A stretch of 64,000 nt of DNA from Squalus acanthias. Its lineage: Eukaryota. Shown piece by piece: positions 12,986 to 51,909 of this stretch. The stretch covers positions 31,746,001 through 31,810,000 of the forward strand of contig CM059432.1 of assembly GCA_030390025.1 (NCBI GenBank), read 5' to 3'. A program made the position numbers and the translations under genes. The notes under the pieces were generated by a model that made no database searches, had not been told where the DNA came from, and saw only the letters and a program-made list of their open reading frames with translations. Every line of letters starts with the position of its first letter. Position 1 is the stretch's first letter.

Positions 12986-13067
12986 TAAAAATTCCATCTC
13001 AGGGGACAGGATAGTTCAGTAGGTTATAAAGTATTCTTTCATATCATCAATCCAGATTTAAACACAG

Positions 13068-13158
13068 GTTCATCGACCTGAAACGTTAACTCTGTTTCTC
13101 TCTCCACAAAGCTGCCTGACCTGCTGAGTGTTTCCAGCATTTTCTGTTTTTATTTCAA
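13068..13158 (+). mobile_element. Penelope-type terminal repeat fragment (hammerhead 5' half missing)
   Basis: CATCGACCTGAAACGTTAACTCTG... same family as 25382-25737 and 36113-36347. Confidence 0.65.
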
Positions 13159-15451: not shown

Positions 15452-15521
15452 ATGTCCGAGGACCCCAGCTCCCTGCCCTGGTCTATCATCAGAGAGGATT
15501 ATGAACTTAAGGAGGTGATTG
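15452..15521 (+). CDS. OXSR1: Serine/threonine kinase OSR1 (STE20 family), coding exon 1
   Basis: MSEDPSSLPWSIIREDYELKEVI(G) closely matches the OXSR1 N-terminus as I recall it (MSEDSSALPWSINRDDYELQEVIG); ACAATG start context; phase-1 donor G|GTAAGT; lies at the CpG island. Confidence 0.92.
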
Positions 15522-20700: not shown

Positions 20701-23700
20701 AAGCAGTTCGGGAGGATTTAAACTAATATGGCAGGGGAATGGGAACCTATGTAGCGAAACAGGGGGAAGTAATATGCAGTCAGAAACAAATGTTAGAAGG
20801 GTGAGAAACAATAGGGGAAGGCCGAGTAAACAAAGGCAAGAAACACAAAGGGCCATACTAAATCATAAGTCTAAAAGGACAAAGGATGTTAATAAAACAA
20901 GCCTAAAGGCTCTGTGTCTTAATGCAAGGAGTATCCGTAATAAGGTGGATGAATTGACTGTGCAAATAGATGTTAACGGATACGATGTGATTGGGATTAC
21001 AGAGACGTGGCTCCAGAACAATCAAGGCTGGGAACTGAACATCCAGGGGTATTCAACATTCAGAAAGGATAGAATAAAAGGAAAAGGGGGTGGGGTAGCA
21101 TTGCTGGTTAAAGAGGAGATTAATGCAATAGCTAGGAAGGACATCAGCTTGGAGGATGTGGAATCAATATGGGTTGAGCTGCAGAACACCAAAGGGCAGA
21201 AAACGTTAGTGGGAGTTGTGTACAGACCTCCAAACAGCAGTAGTGAGGTGGGGGAGGGTATGAAACAGGAAATCAGAGGTGCGTGCAAAAAAGGCACGGC
21301 AGTTATCATGGGTGACTTTAATATGCATATAGATTGGGCTACTCAAACTGGAAGCAATACGGTGGAGGAGGATTTCCTGGAGTGTTTAAGGGATGGTTTC
21401 CTAAACCAATATGTTGAGGAACCAACTCGAGGGGAGGCCATCCTGGACTGGGTGTTGTGTAATGAGGAGGGACTAATCAGCAATCTTGTGGTACGAGGCC
21501 CCCTGGGGAAGAGTGACCATAGTATGGTGGAGTTCTACATTAGGATGGAGAAGGAAACAGTTAAGTCAGAGACCATGGTCCAGAACTTAAATAAGGGCAA
21601 CTTTGAGGGTATGAGGCGTGAATTGGCGAGGTTAAATTGGCAAGCGATATTTAAGGGGCTATCAGTGGAAGGGCAATGGCAGACATTTAGAGATCGCATG
21701 GATGAACTACAACAATTGTACATCCCGGTCTGGCGTAAAAATAAAAAAGGGAAGGTGGCTCAACCATGGCTAACAAGGGAAATCAGGGATAGTATTAAAA
21801 CCAAGGAATTTGCATACAAATTGGCCAGAAGTAGCAGCAAACCCGGGGACTGGGAGAACTTCAAAACTCAGCAGAGGAGGACGAAGGGTTTGATTAGGGC
21901 AGGGAAAATAAAATATGAAAGGAAGCTTGCAGAGAACATTAAAATGGACTGCAAAAGCTTCTATAAATATGTAAAAAGAAAGAGGTTAGTAAAAACAAAC
22001 GTAGGTCCCCTGCAGTCGGAAACAGGGGAAGTCGTAATGGGGAACAAGGAAATGGCAGCTCAATTGAACAAGTACTTTGGTTCGGTGTTTACTGTGGAGG
22101 ACACACACAATCTGCCGGAAATAAAAGGGGTCAGAGGATCTGGTAAGAGGGAGGAGCTGAGGGAAATCCTTATTAGTCGGGAAAAGGTATTGGGGAAATT
22201 GATGGGACTGAAGGCTGAAAAATCCCCGGGGCCTGATGGTCTGCATCCCAGAGTACTTAAGGAGGTGGCCTTGGAAATAGTGGATGCATTGACGATCATT
22301 TTCCAACATTCCTTAGACTCTGGATCAGTTCCGATGGAGTGGAGGGTGGCCAATGTAACCCCTCTTTTTAAAAAAGGAGGGAGGGAGAAAGCAGGGAATT
22401 ATAGACCGGTCAGCCTGACATCGGTCGTGGGTAAAATGATGGAAGCAATTATTAAAGATGTCATAACAGACCATTTGGAAAGTGGCGACATGATAGGTCC
22501 AAGTCAGCATGGATTTGTGAAAGGGAAATCATGCTTGACAAATCTTCTGGAATTTTTTGAGGATGTTTCCAATAGGGTGGACAGGGGGGAACCAGTAGAT
22601 GTGGTGTATTTGGACTTTCAGAAGGCCTTCGACAAGGTCCCACACAAGAGATTGGTGAGCAAAGTTAAAGCACATGGGATTGGGGGTAATGTGTTGACGT
22701 GGATTGAGAACTGGTTGGCACACAGGAAGCAAAGAGTAGGAGTAAATGGGTACTTTTCAGAATGGCAGGCAGTGACCAGCGGGGTACCGCAGGGTTCGGT
22801 GCTGGGACCCCAGCTGTTTACATTATATATTAATGATTTGGACGAAGGGATTAAATGTAATATCTCCAAATTTGCGGATGACACTAAATTGGGAGGCAGT
22901 GTGAACAATGAGGAGGATGCTAGGAGGCTACAGAGTGACTTGGACAGGTTGGGTGAATGGGCAAATGTATGGCAGATGAAGTACAATGTGGATAAATGTG
23001 AGGTTATCCACTTTGGTGGTAAAAATAGAGAGGCGGACTATTACCTGAATGGTGGCAGATTAGGGAAAGGGGACGTGCAACGAGACCTGGGCGTCATGGT
23101 ACATCAGTCACTGAAGGTGGGAATGCAAGTGCAGCAGGCAGTCAAGAAAGCAAACGGAATGATGGCCTTCATAGCAAGGGGATTTGAGTACAGGAGTAGG
23201 GACGTGATGCTACAGTTGTACAGGGCCTTGGTGAGGCCACACCTGGAGTATTGTGCGCAGTTTTGGTCTCCTAACTTAAGGAAGGACATTCTCGCTATTG
23301 AGGGAGTGCAGCGAAGGTTCACTAGATTGATTCCTGGGATGGCCGGACTGACATATCAAGAAAGATTGGGTCAACTGAACTTGTATCCTCTGGAGTTCAG
23401 AAGAATGAGGGGGGATCTTATAGAGACATTTAAAATCCTGACTGGTTTAGACAAATTAGATGCGGGCAGAATGTTCCCAATGGTGGGGAAAACTAGAACC
23501 AGGGGTCACAGTCTAAGGATTAAGGGGAAGCCATTTAGGACTGAGCTGAGGAGGAACTTCTTCACCCAGAGAGTGGTGAATCTATGGAATTCTCTTCCAC
23601 AGAAGGTTGTTGAGGCCAGTTCGCTAAATATATTCAAAAGGGAGTTAGATATAACACTCACAACTAAGGGGATCAAGGGGTATGGCGAGAAAGCAGGAAT

Positions 23701-23803
23701 GGGGTACTGAAGTAGCATGTTCAGCCATGAACGCATTGAATGGCGGTGCAGGCTCGAAGGACCGAATGGTCTACTCCTGTACCTATTTTCTATGTTTCTA
23801 TGT
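20701..23803 (+). mobile_element. Young 5'-truncated CR1 inserted in inverted orientation into the host CR1
   Basis: Starts in the last ORF1 codons (AVREDLN*) and ends in a (TTTCTATG)n tail; host RT sequence resumes at 23804 with a short target deletion. Confidence 0.9.
20774..23710 (+). CDS. CR1 ORF2: APE endonuclease + reverse transcriptase, uninterrupted 978 aa
   Basis: NARS, ITETW, YRPP, GDFN, SDH (APE); [37 protein letters not shown] (RT); the frame is open upstream to the insertion junction. Confidence 0.93.
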   Translation: MQSETNVRRVRNNRGRPSKQRQETQRAILNHKSKRTKDVNKTSLKALCLNARSIRNKVDELTVQIDVNGYDVIGITETWLQNNQGWELNIQGYSTFRKDRIKGKGGGVALLVKEEINAIARKDISLEDVESIWVELQNTKGQKTLVGVVYRPPNSSSEVGEGMKQEIRGACKKGTAVIMGDFNMHIDWATQTGSNTVEEDFLECLRDGFLNQYVEEPTRGEAILDWVLCNEEGLISNLVVRGPLGKSDHSMVEFYIRMEKETVKSETMVQNLNKGNFEGMRRELARLNWQAIFKGLSVEGQWQTFRDRMDELQQLYIPVWRKNKKGKVAQPWLTREIRDSIKTKEFAYKLARSSSKPGDWENFKTQQRRTKGLIRAGKIKYERKLAENIKMDCKSFYKYVKRKRLVKTNVGPLQSETGEVVMGNKEMAAQLNKYFGSVFTVEDTHNLPEIKGVRGSGKREELREILISREKVLGKLMGLKAEKSPGPDGLHPRVLKEVALEIVDALTIIFQHSLDSGSVPMEWRVANVTPLFKKGGREKAGNYRPVSLTSVVGKMMEAIIKDVITDHLESGDMIGPSQHGFVKGKSCLTNLLEFFEDVSNRVDRGEPVDVVYLDFQKAFDKVPHKRLVSKVKAHGIGGNVLTWIENWLAHRKQRVGVNGYFSEWQAVTSGVPQGSVLGPQLFTLYINDLDEGIKCNISKFADDTKLGGSVNNEEDARRLQSDLDRLGEWANVWQMKYNVDKCEVIHFGGKNREADYYLNGGRLGKGDVQRDLGVMVHQSLKVGMQVQQAVKKANGMMAFIARGFEYRSRDVMLQLYRALVRPHLEYCAQFWSPNLRKDILAIEGVQRRFTRLIPGMAGLTYQERLGQLNLYPLEFRRMRGDLIETFKILTGLDKLDAGRMFPMVGKTRTRGHSLRIKGKPFRTELRRNFFTQRVVNLWNSLPQKVVEASSLNIFKRELDITLTTKGIKGYGEKAGMGY

Positions 23804-25381
23804 CTTCCTGTTTTTGCCACCAAAGTGGATAACCTCGCATTTATCCACATTATACGGCATCTGCCCAATCATTCAACCTGTCCAAATCATACTGGAGTTT
23901 CTCTGCATCCTCCTCACAGCGCACACGCCCACCCAGCTTTGTATCATCTGCAAACTTGGAGATATTACATCTAGTTCACTTGTCTAGATCGTTAATATAT
24001 ATTGTGAATAGCTGGGGTCCTAGCACCGATCCCTGCGGTACCCCACTAGTCACTGCCTGCCACTTGGAAAAAGACCTGTTTATTCCAACTCTTTGCTTCC
24101 TGTCTGCCAACCAGTTCTCTATCCAAGTCAGTACCTTACCCCCAATCCCATGTGCTTGAACTTTTCACGCTAATCTCTTATGCGGGACCTTATTGAAAGC
24201 CTTCTGAAAGTCCAAATACACCACATCCACTGGTTCTCCCTTATCTATTCTACCAGTTACATCATCAAAAAATTCCAGTAGATCAGTCGAGCATGATTTA
24301 CCTTTTGTAAAACCATGTTGACTTTGTCCGATCCTGTCACTGTTTTCCAAGTGCTCTGCTATTACATCTTTTATAATGGACTCGAGCATTTTCCCCACTA
24401 CCGATGTCAGGCTTACCGGTCTATAATTCCCCGTTTTCTCTCTACCACCTTTTTTAAATAGTGGGGTTACATTAGCTACCCTCCAATCCATGGGAACTGT
24501 TCCAGAGTCTATAGAATTTTGGAAGATGACCAGCAATGCATCTACTATTTCTAGGGCCACTTCCTTAAGTACCCTAGGATGTAGATTATCAGGCCCTGGG
24601 GATTTATCGGCCTTCAATCCCGTCAATTTCCCTAACACCATTTCGCTACAAATACTGATTTAATTCAATTCCTCCCTCATTAGACCCTATGTTCCCTGAC
24701 ATCTCTGGGAGGTTATTTGTGTCCTCCTTTGTGAAGACAGAACCAAAGTATGTATTTAATTGGTCTGCCATTTCTTTGTTCCCCATTATAAACTCCCCTG
24801 ATTCTCACTGCAAGGGACCTACGCTTGACTTCACCAATCGTTTTCTCTTCACATATCTATAGAAGCTTTTACAGTCAGTTTTTATGTTCCCTGCAAGCTT
24901 ACTCTCATTCTATTTTCCCCCTCTTAATTAATCCCGTTGTCCTCCTTTGCTGAATCCTAAACTGCTCCCAATCCTCAGGTTTGCTGCTTTTTCTGGCCAA
25001 TTTATATGTCCTCTCCTTGGATCTTATGCTATCCCTAATTTCCCTTGTTAGCCACGGTTGAGTCACTTTTTTTATGCCAAACAGGGATGAACAAATTCTG
25101 TAGTTCATCCATGTGATCTTTAAATGTTTGCCATTGCCTATCCACCGTCAACCCTTTAAGTAACGCTCCCCAAACCATCCTAGCCAACTCGCGCCTCATA
25201 CCATCGTAGTTTCCTTTATTTAAATTCAGGACCCTGGTCTGTGTCAACTACTTCACTCTCCATCTTAATGAAGAATTCGATCATATTATGATCGCTCCTC
25301 CCCAAGGGGCCTCGCACAACAAGATTGCTAATTAATCCTTTCTCATTACATAATACCCAGTCTAAGATGGCCTGATCACTA

Positions 25382-25737
25382 CGATAGCAAAATACTGCAG
25401 ATGCTGGAAATCCGAAATAACAACAGAAAACGCTGGAAAAACTCAGCAGGCCAGGCAGCATCCGTGGAGAGAGAAACAGAGTTAACGTTTCAAGTCGAAG
25501 ACCCTTCGTCAGAACTGGAAAAAAGCAGGAAATGAAATAGATTTAAAGCAAGTATAATGCTGGGAAAAGGGGGAGGGGATGAAAGAACAAAGGGGAAGGT
25601 CAGTGGTAGTATAGAAGGCAGGAGAGATTGAGAGACATTAAGAGATATTCAAGGCGAGAGGAGGTGGTAATGTGACAGGTTGAGGCTAGATGAGGTGTGA
25701 AATGCGCTGGCGGAATGAAGGACAGCTGCCAGCTTCA
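25382..25737 (-). mobile_element. Penelope-type short insertion with hammerhead
   Basis: 13-bp TSD GGCCTGATC(A/T)CTA at 25369-25381 / 25738-25750; interrupts host CR1 ORF2. Confidence 0.75.
25480..25516 (-). ncRNA. Minimal type I hammerhead ribozyme motif
   Basis: AGUU-CUGACGA-A-GGGUC(UUC)GACUU-GAAA-CGUU-AACU: core intact, stems I and II pair, palindromic AACGUU in place of stem III. Confidence 0.7.
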
Positions 25738-26453
25738 GGCCTGATCTCTAGTTGGTTCCTCGACATATTGGTCCAGGAAACCATCCCGTATACACTCTAG
25801 GAATTCCTCCTCCACAGTATTGTTACTAATTTGGTTAGCCCAATCTATATGTAGATTAAAGTCACCCATGATAACTGCTGTGCCCTTATTGCACGTGTCT
25901 CTAATTTCCCGTTTAATGCCATCCCCAACCTCAGCATTACTGTGTGGGGGTCTGTATACAACTCCCACTAACGTTTTTTGCCCCTTGGTATTTCTCAGCT
26001 CTACCCATACAGATTCCACATCATCAGAGCTAATATCCTTCCTTACTGTGTTAATTATTGTGTTAATCTCCTCTTTAACCAGCAATGCTACCCCACCTCC
26101 TTTTCCTTTTTGCCTGTCCTTCCTGAATATTGAATACCCCTGGATGTTGAATTCCCAGCCTTGGTCACCCTGGAGCCATGTCTCCGTAATCCCAATTATA
26201 TCATATCCGTTTACATCTATTTGCGCAGCTAATTCATCCACCTTATTACGAATGCTCCTCGCATTAAGACACAAAGCCTTCAGGCTTGTTTTTTTAACAC
26301 TTAGTCCTTTTAGAATTATTATTTACTGTAGCCCTGTTTGATTTACACCCTTGATTTCTCTGCCTTCCCTTTTGCTTTTCTCCTTCCTGTCTTTTTCTAT
26401 CCTTGCTTCCCTTTCCTCTGTCTCCCTGCACAGGTTCCTAACCCCCTGCCATT

Positions 26454-27877: not shown

Positions 27878-28443
27878 CTCTTTGAAAGAGCTATCCAATT
27901 AGCCTCACTTCCCTGCTCCTTTTTTTAAGAATTGCATCGAATTTACAGCACAGAAACAGGCCATTCGGCTGGTATTTGTGCCCCTGGACGAGCTTACTTC
28001 ATCTCACTCTCAACATCGCCTTCTATTCCTTTCTCGTACTTATCTAGCTTCCCCTTAAATGCAACTATGCTATTCGTCTCAACCACTCCCATGTGGTAGC
28101 CAGTTCTGTATTCTTTCCCCATAGCCCTGCAATTTTTTTCTTTTCCAGTATATATCCAATTCCCTTTTAAAAGTTACTATGGAATATGCTTCCACCACCC
28201 TTTCAGGCAGCACATTCCAGATCATCATAACTCACTGTGTAAAACTATTTCTCCTCATCTCCCCTCTGGTTCTTTTGGCAATTATTTTGTATCTGTGTTC
28301 ACTGGTTACTGACCCTCCTGCCAGTAGAAACAGTTTCTCCTTATTTACTCAATCAAAACCCTTCATAATTTTGAACACCTCTAATAAATCTCCCCTTGTC
28401 TTCTCTGCTCTAAGAACAACAATTTCACTTTCTCTAGACTCTT
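27878..28443 (-). mobile_element. Older CR1 3' fragment (its tail continues at ~19880-19941; contains another CR1 tail at ~27920-28110)
   Basis: CR1 C-terminal/3' UTR sequence joins across the full-length CR1 insertion. Confidence 0.7.
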
Positions 28444-28528
28444 TATTCCCAGGTAGTCTCCCATCCAAGTACTGAACAGGCTTGACTCTGCTTAGCTTCC
28501 AAGATTGGACAAGATCGGGCGTTTTCAG
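28444..28528 (-). pseudogene. 5S rRNA-derived fragment
   Basis: Reverse complement CTGAAAACGCCCGATCTTGTCCAATCTTGGAAGCTAAGCAGAGTCAAGCCTGTTCAGTACTTGGATGGGAGACTACCTGGGAATA aligns by eye with vertebrate 5S rRNA (A box AGCTAAGC, C box TGGATGGGAG); both ends truncated. Confidence 0.9.
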
Positions 28529-28839
28529 TTAGGATCAAAAGTTTCATTTGGGGCTCCACAATGCTGGCAACAGATCTTTGCGCTCCGTCCAATTGGGGAG
28601 CCCATCAGTATGAAAACAGCAGCATTGGTGGTCTCCACTCAACAGATATAGTTGCAATGTGATTTTTTGTATCAGCTATCAGCAATACAGCAGTGTTTCA
28701 ACCCTAGTCATTTGCATTATCTTCACAACTCATCCTTCTCTATTTCCTCCATTCTTTTCTTCAGAGAAAGGAGAGAGAAATTATTTTCAATGAACCTCTG
28801 CAGAAATGGACTTGGTGGTGGGTTTTTTCCTTAGTCATT

Positions 28840-35644: not shown

Positions 35645-36945
35645 TTGTGATTGTGTGGCCCTACCTCCGTGCTAAATGGGATAGATTCAGAATGGATCTA
35701 GCAGCTCAAAACTGGGCATCCATGAGGCGCTGTGGGCCATCAGCAGCAGCAGAATTGTATTGCACCACAATCTGTAACCTCATGGCCCAGCATATTCATC
35801 ACTCGACCATAGAAGCATAAGTATGCCAGGAGCAGAACCAGGTGTACTTAAAAAGAAAGAGGTCAAACTCGTGAAGCTACAGCACAGGACTACATCATGC
35901 TAAACAGTGAAAGCATGCAGCAAGACCTGGACAATATTCAGGCGTGGGCTGATAAGTGGCAAAGAACATTCGTGTCACCCAAGTGCCAGGCAATGACCAT
36001 CTCCAACACGGGAAAGTCTAACCACCTCGCCTTGACATGCAATAGCATTACCACCATCACCATCCTGGGGGTCACCATTCACTAGAAACTTAACTGGACC
36101 AGCCAACACATATACAATAGCAAAATACTGCGGATGCTGACAATCTGGAACAACACCAGAAAATGCTGGAAACACTCAGCAGGTCAGGCAGCATCGTGGA
36201 GAGAGAAACAGTTAACGTTTCAGGTCGATGACCCTTCGTCAGAAGTTCTGACAAAGGGTCATCGACCTGAAACATTAACTCTGTTTCTCTCTCCATGATG
36301 CTGCCAGACCTGCTGAGTGTTTCCAGCATTTTCTGTTGTTGTTCCAGCCACATAAATACTGTGGCTACAAGAGCAGGTCAGAAGCTGGGTATTCTGTGGC
36401 GAGTGACTCCACTATCTACAAGGCACAATTCAGAAGTGTGATGGAATTCTCTCCACTTGCTTGGATGAGTGCAGATCCAACAACACTCAAGAAGCTTGAC
36501 GCCATCCAGGATATAGCAGCCAGCTTGATTGGCACCCCATCCACCACCTTAAACATTCACTCCCTCCACCACCAGCGTACCGTGGCTGCAGTGTGTACTG
36601 TCTACAAGATGCACTGCAGCAACTCGCCAAGGATTCTTCGACAGCACCTCCCAAACCCACGACCTCTACCGCCTAGAAGGACAAGGGCATGCCATCACCT
36701 CTAAGTTCCCCTCCAAGTCACACACCATCCTGGTTTGGAAATATATCACCGCCGTTCCTTCATCGTCACTGGGTCAAAATCCTGGTACTCCCTACCTAAC
36801 AGCACTGTAGGAGTACTTCCACCACGCGGACAGCAGCAGTTCAAGAAGGCGGCTCACCACCACCTTCTCGAGGACGACTAGGGTTGGGCAATAAATGCTG
36901 TCCTTGCCAGTGACACCCACATCCTGCGAATGAATAAATAAAAAA
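35645..36945 (+). mobile_element. LINE of the CR1/L2 group, distinct family (Zenon-like C-terminus), with internal deletions
   Basis: QQDLDNIQAWADKWQ, IYKAQ.RSVME.SPLAW, SLHHQRTVAA; second copy at 51050-51909; clade assignment tentative. Confidence 0.7.
36113..36347. mobile_element. Palindromic Penelope-type mini-element (two inverted hammerhead-bearing arms)
   Basis: Arms 36145-36244 and 36246-36347 are reverse complements with few mismatches; CCAGCCA duplicated at the flanks; interrupts the LINE. Confidence 0.8.
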
Positions 36946-38970: not shown

Positions 38971-40763
38971 TCATGCGCAAAAATTTGAATGGGCCGCGCA
39001 GCCACTTAAAAGGACTACGCACAAAAAAAATTAGTGAACATTGTTGCGGAGTGATTTTAGCTTTTGTGCACAGTGACTATACAGTAACATGATACATGGG
39101 TTAGCGCAGAGTTATTTATTGATGCTAAATGCCAACTCCGGTAGTTGATTTTTTCAATTGACTGGCCAAATGAATGACTCCAGTCCCTTCTGACGTATTC
39201 TGGCAGTTTCTTTTGAAAGGTATACATATTTTTAAAAGTTCTTTTAAGCTGCTGACTGGCTTAGTGGGTTTATCCAATTAATTAAGCCATACAGATCAAG
39301 AAGGCCCCTGATTCAATCCCTGGTCTGTGCTGAGTTGGCTAATTTCAGCTGGGTTGATTTTAGTAGGGTGCTGCAATTGATTAGGAAATTGTGCCTTCAG
39401 TACTCCAGGGGAGAAAATTGGTCAGGAGACAGACATGTCATAAAACTATTTAACACACTGGCAGGATATGTAATGGAGATGTGTGAAATATCCTGTTATA
39501 CTTGGAAACAACCTAAATGATTGACGTGCAGTTGTCTTGAAAGTAAGTTATGAGATTGTCTTTTAATGGGTGTCCACACTGTACTTGCATGTCCTGTGTT
39601 GTGGAGTGATTGAAGTCTTTTTTGCAGCAAAGCGATACTGGGTCAGAACATTTATTTATTGATACCAAATGTCAACTGTGGTAGTTGACTTGCTGACTTG
39701 ATGATTCACTGATTCCTACTGGCATATTCTTGAGGTTTACTCTGAAAAGTACATCCTTGTGCATAACTTACTGATTTAAAAAGAAAAGTAATTGAAAGCT
39801 CCACTGATGGCTCAGTGAGTTTTTCCAGAACTCTGCAGACTAGGAAGGTTTCAGGTTTGATGCCTGGTCTGTGCTGAGCTAGCAGGTCCAGCAGTCGTGG
39901 GGGCAACAGAATTGGCTTTTTTGTCCATGTGCTAGGAAGGGAAAAATTAGCCAGGGTTCTCACCTCCTGATTGCTATGCAGTGACCCCTGTTAAAAGGTG
40001 TAGACGTTAGTGTGGACACTGGGTGACGGCTCAGCTGTGATGTGCCCTTCAGTTAACACTGCACTGTCAAGGCTCACATATAATGAATAAAAGTCAAGTT
40101 GCTGGATGGTGACTGTATCCCAGTAAGGAGTCTATTACAACTTCGGGAGAGGGAAAATAATTGGCTGGGGGAAAAAGCTTTAAAATTGCATGGATCCAAT
40201 TCCGATCGCAGTCTTCTGAGAGTGGATGATGAAACGTGCTTTGTTTTTATTTCCCTCACTGGTTGTTTTTTTTCATGTGTCCAAGAAGTAAGAGTTGGCA
40301 AGTGTCTCCGATGGAACCCTCAAAGCTTACTCATTGAGATGTGCAACAGTGACCGAGTGAACTCATCGTTCTCGTGCCTTTTTGCAGCAGATAGATTGAG
40401 ATTTGGAACTCGGCATGTTGGGAGGGAGGGGGAGTGACTCAATTTATTGTCATTGTGTACTACAATTGCAGTGAGTTGTACTGTATTGAAATGCAACACT
40501 CTTTTGTTTGACCTATGTTGCTAGTGTCCCCTCCCTTGCTGCTTCACTGAAAGTATTGAACAGGGGATCAGTAGGGACACGAACAGAAACATGATGACTG
40601 GGTGGCCCAATTATGAAGGCAACTACCAAGTGGTGAGATTGCTCACTTACATATCTATATAATATATTAAAAATCTTGCATCTATTTGCACTGCCTGTCT
40701 TAAAAAAAAAGAATAACTTCTGTCCTGTTGTCACACTTAGATTCCTATGTCCACATTTATAAT

Positions 40764-40921
40764 GAGAAGTCGCACAACACCAGGTTATAGTCCAACAGTT
40801 TTATTTGAAATCACAAGCTTTCGGAGCTTACGTGGCCCCTTCCTCAGGTGAAGTAAAGAAATATTTCTTTACTTCTCATTTTTGTCCACCCCAGTCCAAC
40901 ACCGGCATCTCCGCATCATGA
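40764..40921 (-). mobile_element. Penelope-type mini-element, second family, partly inverted
   Basis: Perfect 13-bp TSD CCACATTTATAAT (40751-40763 / 40922-40934); hammerhead followed by AATAAA on -; internal 26-bp palindrome. Confidence 0.8.
40811..40851 (-). ncRNA. Minimal type I hammerhead ribozyme motif
   Basis: UCAC-CUGAGGA-A-GGGGC(CACGUAA)GCUCC-GAAA-GCUU-GUGA: core intact, stem I UCAC/GUGA, 5-bp stem II, palindromic AAGCUU. Confidence 0.78.
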
Positions 40922-41749
40922 CCACATTTATAATAGAAGCTGCTTATGCAAACTCATGCTGTAATTCCACCCTCCTGCCAAAAACAAAATATAAACTTCA
41001 AACACTTTTTGCCTTAAATCATCCTATGCAATGCCACAGGATATCAACTAGTTTATAGAAAAACATTTGGAGATAGGTGATTATTTTAGGTTATTACTTA
41101 AGTAGGACATTAAGCCTTTTCCTTTTAATATGGACAATTGAAGATTGAAAGTTTGAGAGTGTCCTGAATTTAAATTTATGATGCTTGTTTTTATTGGAGA
41201 TCTGATGTTTGTTTGCGGTCCTGTAGCAGCTGGGTGTGTATTTTTGCTGTATTTGATGCATCCCATACTGATCCTGAGTACTTACCAAAGTAAATAACGT
41301 ATTCATAAAGTTGACAGTCTTTAGTGCGTGGCGTACGCTTTAACAGCTCCACCCTAGTTGTGACTGTGACTAAGCTGAAAGATCAGTGAGTATTATGTAC
41401 CACTTCTAGCAGTGTTGCTCATCAGCTTTTTATTGGAGGCCTCCATCTCAACCAATATCCATACTCAAAGGCTGCTCTCAGCTGTTGCAAAACACTGCAC
41501 CGTGAAGTAATGGGATGTGAACCTGTGCCTCAAGCCACCTGTCACTGAGCATTTGCCAAGTGGAGGCTAGACACTTTCTTGCAAGGTGGTAACTGTAGGT
41601 CCAATAGATCTATTTTAATAGGACGCCTCTGCTTACTGTATGTAAGCCCTGTCTTTTAATTGCATTCTTATGCCATTTTTTTCTGGAGAGCAAGACAACA
41701 GCTGATTGCTAGCTTGGTCACCATCCTGCAGTCAAGGAGAGGCCCAGAC

Positions 41750-51049: not shown

Positions 51050-51909
51050 TCCTAGGCCCAACCATCTTCAGCTGCTTCATCAATGACCTTTTCATCCATC
51101 ATAAGGTCAGAAGTGGGGATATTCACTGATTGCAGTGTTCAGTTCCATTTGCAACTCCCCAGATAATGAAACGGTCCATGCCCGCACGCAACAAGACCTG
51201 GACAACTTTCAGGCTTGGGCTGATAAGTGGCAAGTAAATTTGCGCCACACAAGTGCCAGGCAATGACTGTCTCCAACAAGAGAGTGGCTAACTACCGCCT
51301 CTTGACATTTAACTGCATTACCATCGCTAAATCCCCCACCATCAACATCCTGGGGGGTCACCATTGACCAGAAACTTAACTGGACCAGCCACATAAATAC
51401 TGTGGCAAAAAGAGCAGGTCAGAGGCTGTGTATTCTGCGGCAAGTGTCTCACCTCCAGACTCCCCAAAGCCTTTCCACCATCTACAAAGCACAAGTCAGG
51501 AGTGTGATGAAATACTTTCCACTTGCCTGGATGAATGCAGCTCCAACAACATTCAAGAAGCTCGACACCATCCAGGACAAAGCAGCCTGCTTGATTGGCA
51601 CCCCATCCACCACCTTAAACATTCACTCCCTCCACCACCGGCGTACCGTGGCTGCAGTGTGTGCCATCTATAAGATACACTGCAGCAACTCGCCAAGGCT
51701 CCTTCGACAGCACCTCCTAAACCCACGACCTCCTCCACCTAGAAGAACAAGGGCAGCACTGGGGTGGACAAAATATTTTGTCCTTCACCACACAGACTGC
51801 AGTGGTTCAAGAAAGTGGCTCACCACGACCTTTTCAAGGGCAATTAGGGATGGGCCATAACTGCTGGCCTTGCCAGTGACACTCACATCCCAGGAATGAA
51901 TAAAAAAAA
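51050..51909 (+). mobile_element. LINE 3' fragment, same family as 35645-36945
   Basis: LSTIYKAQVRSVM...SLHHRRTVAAVC; shared 3' end CACATCCCAGGAATGAATAAAA. Confidence 0.8.

Follow-up and report, generated by a model that had tools for sequence, protein, structure and literature searches.

A 158-bp insert at positions 40764-40921 of a 64,000-nucleotide stretch of the Squalus acanthias genome (assembly GCA_030390025.1, contig CM059432.1, positions 31,746,001 to 31,810,000 of the forward strand; the whole stretch is called the window, and all positions refer to it) is very probably the truncated end of a Penelope-like element (PLE). It carries a minimal hammerhead ribozyme (min-HHR) motif in an inverted piece of the pseudo-long terminal repeat (pLTR) of the element, and probably lies in an intron of the gene OXSR1. 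The assignment draws on architecture and motif, and every testable PLE feature was found in the sequence: an inverted 5'-truncated pLTR lies beside a direct copy (7 nt plus the 8-nt mirror of the centre), a one-sided tail of 41-44 nt has both of its boundaries at recurrent ends, and the element is interspersed, multi-copy and placed in an AT-rich target with a target-site duplication (TSD). A first-pass annotation of the same DNA had offered two readings, a truncated PLE end or a retrozyme-like unit, and the former is the one supported by the inverted pLTR and tail, the min-HHR traits, the high copy number and the recurrent ends.

This architecture is in line with what is known of PLEs. PLE insertions have been described with inverted pLTRs, an optional tail of 31 bp, TSDs of 8-10 bp and palindromes at the inverted junction (PMC3846280), and an inverted pLTR with a one-sided tail of 30-40 bp is considered general for the group (PMC8557442, PMC8969392). 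The insert and its flanks are composed as follows.

40751..40763, no strand: left TSD, 13 bp, AT-rich (sequence comparison)
40764..40862, minus strand (element sense): inverted arm, a 99-nt 3' piece of the PLE pLTR (comparison with family contigs)
40800..40805, minus strand: AATAAA, 9 nt downstream of the expected hammerhead cut, with GU/U-rich sequence after it
40811..40851, minus strand: minimal type I hammerhead (strict descriptor; traits as in PMC4209133)
40850..40875, no strand: perfect zero-spacer hairpin with 13-bp arms, its centre at 40862/40863 being the strand switch
40871..40877, plus strand: direct-arm stub of 7 nt, the last bases of the pLTR piece (family loose ends before 40871)
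40878..40921, plus strand: tail of 44 nt (41 if a 3-nt overlap is given to the other side), on one arm only (family contigs)
40922..40934, no strand: right TSD, 13 bp (sequence comparison)

Boundaries and anatomy of the insert

The insert is enclosed by a perfect 13-bp direct repeat, CCACATTTATAAT, at 40751-40763 and 40922-40934, as the first-pass annotation had reported. Extended leftwards, the two copies agree at 16/17 positions, and the last three nucleotides of the left TSD, AAT, are complementary to the first three of the tail in the template RNA. Exact 13-bp direct repeats within 300 bp of each other occur 6 times in the real window (mean 0.57 and maximum 2 in 30 shuffles), and since such repeats arise by chance about 0.6 times per window, the TSD taken alone was rejected as proof of an insertion. 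For a match of 13 letters at one predetermined place p is ~3.5e-8, and the repeat gains its weight because it is placed exactly on two recurrent ends of the family.

Contigs from 4 of 21 sequencing runs were compared with 40480-41200 at 80% likeness, namely X1 and X19 from organism A, X8 from organism D and X6 from organism B, with X19 only guessed to be RNA. The rows available for inspection were 15 of 46 joints, 24 of 511 loose ends, 12 of 16 indel rows and 32 of 20,796 pieces. One X1 contig (record 8) aligns from 40918 rightwards with one other letter and has 13 letters left over, and the alignment of another (record 2) stops at 40763. A single position distinguishes the 17 bases up to the end of the left TSD from 40918-40934, and 13 + 17 = 30 is the overlap of neighbouring 31-mer contigs. 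Judged from these coordinates, record 8 fits an empty site in the conspecific organism A, and because one conspecific contig fits an empty site the insertion is probably young. Record 31 of X8, which also starts at 40918, was rejected as an empty site in organism D, its 5 leftover letters being too few to call. In the same organism contigs stop aligning from both sides at 40975-40981 with long unaligned remainders (records 31 and 32), which is probably a separate insertion about 45 bp from the PLE stump.

Inside these boundaries the strand switch noted in the first-pass annotation was located at 40862/40863, the centre of the perfect hairpin with 13-bp arms. The outer 5 bp of this hairpin (GAAGT/ACTTC) double as the start of the direct arm. 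In the inverted arm, 40764-40854 agrees with the family, while 40855-40862 is absent from four loose-end consensus strings. The plus-strand part consists of the start of the 99-nt piece, then the last 2 nt of that piece, then 44 new nucleotides, and compared with a full mirror copy it lacks the 84 nt between two ACTTC pentamers, the hammerhead and AATAAA included. The tail continues directly from the pLTR piece in other copies and terminates at a recurrent family end. From these alignments the plus-strand part is not a separate module, and both parts are one continuous sequence, the pLTR end with its tail, because in other copies the sense continuation precedes the plus-strand part. The same letters may also be parsed as a direct arm of 7 nt and a tail, with a palindromic filler of 16 nt and a shared word of 5 nt linking them to the inverted arm.

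Family copies and the origin of the arms

The first-pass annotation proposed a search for copies elsewhere, and these were found as a high-copy family in the contigs of all four runs, with 13,840 (X1), 2,633 (X8), 2,067 (X6) and 1,755 (X19) contigs aligned. The peak summed depth on the insert exceeds that of the unique flank about 4e5 (X1), 9e4 (X8) and 6e5 (X6) times, ratios that are not copy numbers, and the family is very abundant in three species. Among the X1 contigs aligned, 80% are at least 95% alike. At the loose ends before 40871 the element continues in sense orientation in 94 (X1), 24 (X8), 27 (X6) and 16 (X19) contigs, with an agreement of 0.99, 1.0, 0.98 and 0.77, respectively; all 94 of the X1 contigs listed at this loose end carry the continuation of the minus-strand part. 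An opposite-strand joint between 40761 and 40881 is present in X1 and X6, and copies end recurrently at 40761-40765 and 40919-40921, with long dissimilar flanks beyond. Six of the 15 joints inspected lead from the inverted arm to the tail, each at different points. Other copies are thus fold-backs with other arm lengths and, because the joints differ in position, the lengths of the two arms vary independently; for the same reason a length of 158 bp does not define a unit. At 40868 the depth amounts to 133 (X1), 16 (X8), 0 (X6) and 0 (X19), against 1e5-1e6 in the arms, and the centre of the insert is therefore not a shared unit.

The fold-back and tail architecture is routine in this genome, because another min-HHR family of this window has it too. 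A complete fold-back of this other, second family (palindrome AACGUU) lies inside a long interspersed nuclear element (LINE) at 36123-36364, with arms of about 101 nt, a 1-nt centre at 36245, a one-sided tail and a flanking repeat matching at 10/11 positions. Its plus arm has G8A and a broken palindrome, and its minus arm has an intact core with only 2 bp of stem I. A single pLTR and tail of the second family was seen on the minus strand at 25369-25750, inside a CR1-type LINE, with a 12/13 TSD and about 200 nt of pyrimidine-rich sequence upstream, and a further copy at 13066-13157 on the plus strand, upstream of OXSR1 exon 1, is cut inside stem II. At 51756-51785 a LINE has a patch of about 30 nt where its paralog at 36535-36943 has about 130 bp, and this patch contains a perfect zero-spacer hairpin with 9-bp arms and a 16-mer identical to the start of the tail at 40878-40921. 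The patch resembles a micro fold-back scar left by the family of the 158-bp insert, accompanied by a target deletion.

The insert can be accounted for as a dead-on-arrival, 5'-truncated insertion of a very high-copy, endonuclease-containing (EN+) PLE family, made in trans by the reverse transcriptase (RT)/GIY-YIG protein of an autonomous copy. The protein would nick each strand of the AT-rich intron DNA, with 13 nt between the nicks (the TSD is observed, and the enzyme deduced), and would reverse transcribe a read-through RNA. This RNA was not self-cleaved, because the copy runs across the cut site of the hammerhead and on beyond AATAAA. The first cDNA would start at the end of the tail, primed at the right junction, and the second at the boundary between pLTR and tail, primed from the left nick through the 3-nt AAT/AUU match. 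Both start points are recurrent family ends, and the use of two primers is the interpretation that we place on them. Both cDNAs would then stop early, at 99 and 51 nt, and the junction suggests that the longer one snapped back, copied 13 nt of itself and annealed to the shorter one via ACTTC. We lean towards this snap-back and ACTTC joining as the origin of the short arm.

A possible but unlikely history, with the same PLE origin, is that a full mirror copy, with two 99-nt arms and a tail, was inserted first and that its direct arm subsequently lost 84 nt between the ACTTC pentamers by slippage or repair. The gap is bounded exactly by these repeats, the copy at 36123-36364 is a complete fold-back, and long perfect palindromes are unstable. 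Microhomology-mediated internal deletions have also been described in Penelope copies (PMC3846280). The perfect TSD, the high likeness among X1 contigs and the apparent empty haplotype would however leave little time for such a loss, and many other copies have unequal arm pairs.

It may be asked whether this young copy records how PLEs build their inverted pLTR and tail, both RT start sites being used in one event, one per target strand, as a programmed form of twin priming in which RNA-DNA pairing helps to choose the nick sites. Besides the last 3 nt of the primer, letters past each nick are alike in target and template (AATAGAAG in the target and AATGAGAAG in the element; ATGT and ATGA, respectively; n = 1), and we advance this proposal tentatively, as a rather doubtful one. 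If true, it would qualify the in vitro claim of homology-free priming. Our literature search, with Repbase and most subscription journals outside its scope, gave no paper on the family of the insert or on PLE twin priming.

A 5' inversion with a TSD and a 3-nt microhomology is the signature of twin priming, which also raises the question of a LINE enzyme. A short interspersed nuclear element (SINE)-like RNA copied by a CR1, L2 or RTE enzyme with L1-type twin priming, the hammerhead being incidental, would have a ready source in a window where LINEs are abundant. We consider this highly improbable, as the insert has no poly(A) or simple-repeat 3' end and its ends match none of the LINEs in the window, its inversion point is a fixed position of the family instead of a random one, and the min-HHR and the one-sided tail are PLE traits.

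Several observations weigh against the interpretation as a truncated PLE end with snapped-back arms. On one copy, snap-back joining is indistinguishable from a later deletion. An organism B contig (record 23) aligns through 40863, and the 8 bases of the centre or filler may have been templated by a minor subfamily. The tail of 41-44 nt is slightly above the published 30-40 bp, and priming in the Poseidon element PAc of Anolis carolinensis is reported to occur without homology (PMC11167929), as opposed to the 3-nt match and the flank resemblance seen here. A six-frame motif scan of the window recognised no PLE-like RT/GIY-YIG open reading frame (ORF). Metagenome, viral and genome contig collections gave no true match to the ends of the insert, a blank of little weight because their content is almost wholly prokaryotic or viral; a metagenome contig (L001) was rejected as a chance 20-mer in a GC-rich contig of bacterial type with no further similarity. 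A protein search with the frame that runs into the ATG at the tail end gave no candidate among the longer proteins, which is a weak test, fewer than 20 of its 41 residues being derived from the element. The empty allele is deduced from coordinates, the 13 leftover letters not being displayed. The filled allele is represented by the window only, as neither of its junctions is crossed by a listed contig.

Since the insert is not spanned by any of the contigs listed and a conspecific one fits an empty site, a fold-back chimera of a repeat made during assembly was also considered. Such an artefact would have to make a perfect 13-bp duplication coincide with the two recurrent ends of the family to the base, and other copies and a second family have the same architecture, so that we give this explanation almost no weight.

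The hammerhead motif and the host gene

The CUGAGGA/GAAA core with paired stems I and II, claimed in the first-pass annotation for the minus strand, is present at 40811-40851. Stem I has 4 bp (40851-40848 with 40814-40811); the core CUGAGGA at 40847-40841 is followed by an extra A at 40840, a stem II of 5 bp including one G.U pair (40839-40835 with 40827-40823) and a loop II of 7 nt (40834-40828). GAAA at 40822-40819 is then followed by GCUU, with U as H17, and cleavage is expected between 40815 and 40814. All nucleotides of the conserved core were found (C3-U4-G5-A6-N7-G8-A9, G12-A13-A14, A15.1-U16.1 and H17), as were the traits of PLE min-HHRs, i.e. the extra base between 9 and 10.1, the G10.1-C11.1 pair and the palindromic 15.2-16.2. 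In the hammerhead search the two methods differed: a strict descriptor matched 2 times in the window and 0 times in 100 shuffles, and the Rfam covariance models gave 0 hammerhead matches across the window at gathering score and 0 within 40700-41000 up to E 10. The fold of the monomer is not better than those of shuffled sequences (z 0.21), which is usual in a minimal hammerhead. "Intact" in this text means that the conserved nucleotides are present, and activity is putative.

Of the palindrome in the earlier description, AGCU (4 bp) stands as helix III proper and AAGCUU does not, since an A14-U17 pair is off-register. In standard hammerhead numbering helix III of a dimer is formed by AGCU with AGCU, and an A14-U17 pair would block both a core base and the base at the cleavage site. 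Nearest-neighbour energies (kcal/mol) were -19.7 for the active dimer as compared with -22.2 for a pair of monomers; the A14-U17 register scored -22.3, and an inactive dimer formed via a palindrome in loop II scored -28.9. The active dimer of the 40811-40851 hammerhead is thus not predicted to be favoured, and as these models ignore tertiary contacts of the core the dimer energies are a caution and no test. U is found at position 17 in both families (40815 here; 25512 and 36242 in the second family) and permits the A14-U17 dimer pair. Possibly U17 and this pair are a built-in off state that needs the help of a protein.

In the family the structure of the hammerhead appears to be kept. All 8 of the inspected indel rows that lie inside the element fall in loop II, and stem II is all Watson-Crick with a 3-nt loop in the majority form, while a second form has the G.U pair of the 158-bp insert. 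A C>T change at 40812, at 19% of depth in X1, 16% in X6, 0.2% in X8 and 5% in X19, breaks a stem I pair unless its partner changes. A candidate C-G to U-A exchange has the partner change in a loose-end consensus with an agreement of only 0.55, linkage on one molecule not being displayed.

AATAAA was correctly placed just downstream of the hammerhead (minus strand, 40805-40800), and among the aligned contigs listed it has no variant at 3% or more. No poly(A) tail was found in the insert. AATAAA was rejected as the 3' end of a unit, as the two cDNA ends lie 36 and about 80 nt further downstream, without poly(A).

A non-autonomous retrozyme-like unit, or a unit like a miniature inverted-repeat transposable element (MITE), that is transcribed, cleaves itself as a dimer and is mobile as a whole of 158 bp would account for a non-coding sequence with a hammerhead, and it accords with a proposed origin of animal retrozymes from PLE pLTRs (bioRxiv 10.64898/2026.07.22.740005). 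Family sequence also occurs in X19, the run guessed to be RNA, and at the X1 loose end behind 40827 the consensus passes the upstream edge of the hammerhead with letters equal to the start of the inverted arm, which is readable as a head-to-tail junction. Head-to-tail tandems of about 92 nt could thus exist elsewhere in the genome, as far as an agreement of 0.73 at a median length of 17 can indicate. Among the 21 runs listed, no run with family sequence is recorded as RNA, and contigs cannot show the strand, ends or cleavage of transcripts. For the 158-bp copy this reading is improbable and largely refuted. It is a single copy with no tandem, the hammerhead is a minimal one, the junctions vary among copies and the depth collapses at the centre. 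The ends were not made by self-cleavage, because the cut site lies 47 nt inside the inverted arm, and by the energies above the active dimer scores worse than the monomers and the inactive dimer.

For published min-HHRs no cleavage as monomers and little as dimers is reported (PMC4209133), or a requirement for the protein of the element (PMC11167929). The hammerhead in the truncated PLE end is probably cargo of the pLTR and inactive here; on present evidence we see no role for it at the locus because it is antisense to the pre-mRNA, its would-be partner arm is without the motif and published min-HHRs cleave little or need a protein.

The location in the host gene is indicated by a single exon upstream on the plus strand.

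15452..15521, plus strand: OXSR1 exon 1, coding part, with GT donor (PDB OSR1 match, E 4.7e-06)

The insertion lies 25 kb downstream of this exon, probably in OXSR1 intron 1 with the hammerhead antisense to the gene. The earlier placement antisense in an OXSR1 intron is thus supported by the exon on one strand and the hammerhead on the other, but the next exon was not seen: a short-motif search of the window for later OXSR1 exons gave no convincing match, and a splice-site heuristic was uninformative. An intact core inside a conserved kinase gene could suggest that the ribozyme, or the poly(A) element, has been adopted by the host to act on OXSR1 or on an antisense transcript. This is barely conceivable for a motif that is antisense to the pre-mRNA and without a partner, in an insertion seemingly absent from a conspecific haplotype (record 8) and possibly from organism D (record 31), and the copy is no different from the mass of neutral ones.

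All three intact hammerhead cores in the OXSR1 intron are antisense to the gene, and both sense-facing arms are without a ribozyme, one by the 84-nt gap and one by G8A and a broken palindrome. This is a hint (n = 3 plus 2) that sense-strand hammerheads are purged from the intron, although chance or CpG decay would explain the strand bias and the point changes equally well. The intron also contains, at 20702-23710 on the plus strand, an uninterrupted 1002-codon LINE ORF with endonuclease and RT, which we take to be CR1-like. At 28427-28541 on the minus strand a decayed sequence resembling 5S rRNA (44.9 bits), the only Rfam match in the window, may be a pseudogene or a 5S-derived SINE head.

Significance and comparison with known systems

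The single locus is of small importance, being one of very many PLE stumps, a kind of sequence from which min-HHRs have been known since 2014 (PMC4209133). It is useful as a clean observation of PLE integration, the later steps of which are still unvalidated (PMC11167929). In a young copy that has a perfect TSD and probably an empty allele, the two nicks and the two RT starts are defined to single-base precision. With thousands of such polymorphic copies one could test twin priming, pairing between target and template and the strand bias in introns, and the insertion could serve as a presence/absence marker.

In architecture the insert can be compared to Pen2/Pen2a of Adineta vaga (PMC3846280; scheme in the legend to Fig. 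2 of PMC8557442), with which it shares the head-to-head inverted repeat, a palindrome at the junction, the tail on one arm, a TSD and an internal gap bounded by microhomology. The palindromes were explained by self-priming in the former study. The insert differs in comprising only the terminal ~140 nt, without an ORF and with a direct arm of 7 nt, and in its TSD of 13 bp against 8-10 bp in insertions of the Pen2/Pen2a type.

The hammerhead resembles the metazoan PLE min-HHRs of Cervera and De la Pena (2014, PMC4209133) in the extra nucleotide 9/10.1, G10.1-C11.1, the palindromic 15.2-16.2, a helix I of 4 bp and its occurrence mostly in solitary truncated copies, while helix II has 5 bp here and 7-8 bp in the Schistosoma families. 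Two supplementary files of that article hold no shark entry (file 1 was outside the search). Retrozymes are tandem repeats, and those of PMC7229834 carry canonical hammerheads, the minimal ones marking PLEs. With animal non-LTR (long terminal repeat) retrozymes (PMC7229834; bioRxiv 10.64898/2026.07.22.740005) the insert has in common that it is non-coding, with a type I hammerhead and a probable ancestry in PLE pLTRs, which have been proposed as the source of animal retrozymes (bioRxiv 10.64898/2026.07.22.740005). It is unlike them in having no tandem array, a minimal hammerhead, an inverted architecture and ends off the cut site.

The system of most direct bearing on the integration is PAc (Frangieh et al. 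2024, PMC11167929), for which two adjacent internal RT starts that define the tail, nicking at ATT on both strands and an unprocessed RNA template have been reported. The ORF of PAc begins in stem II, whereas the insert has no ATG before the last bases of its tail. The insert is similar to PAc in the two adjacent ends separated by a tail, the AT-rich target with ATT/AAT at the nick and the uncut RNA template.

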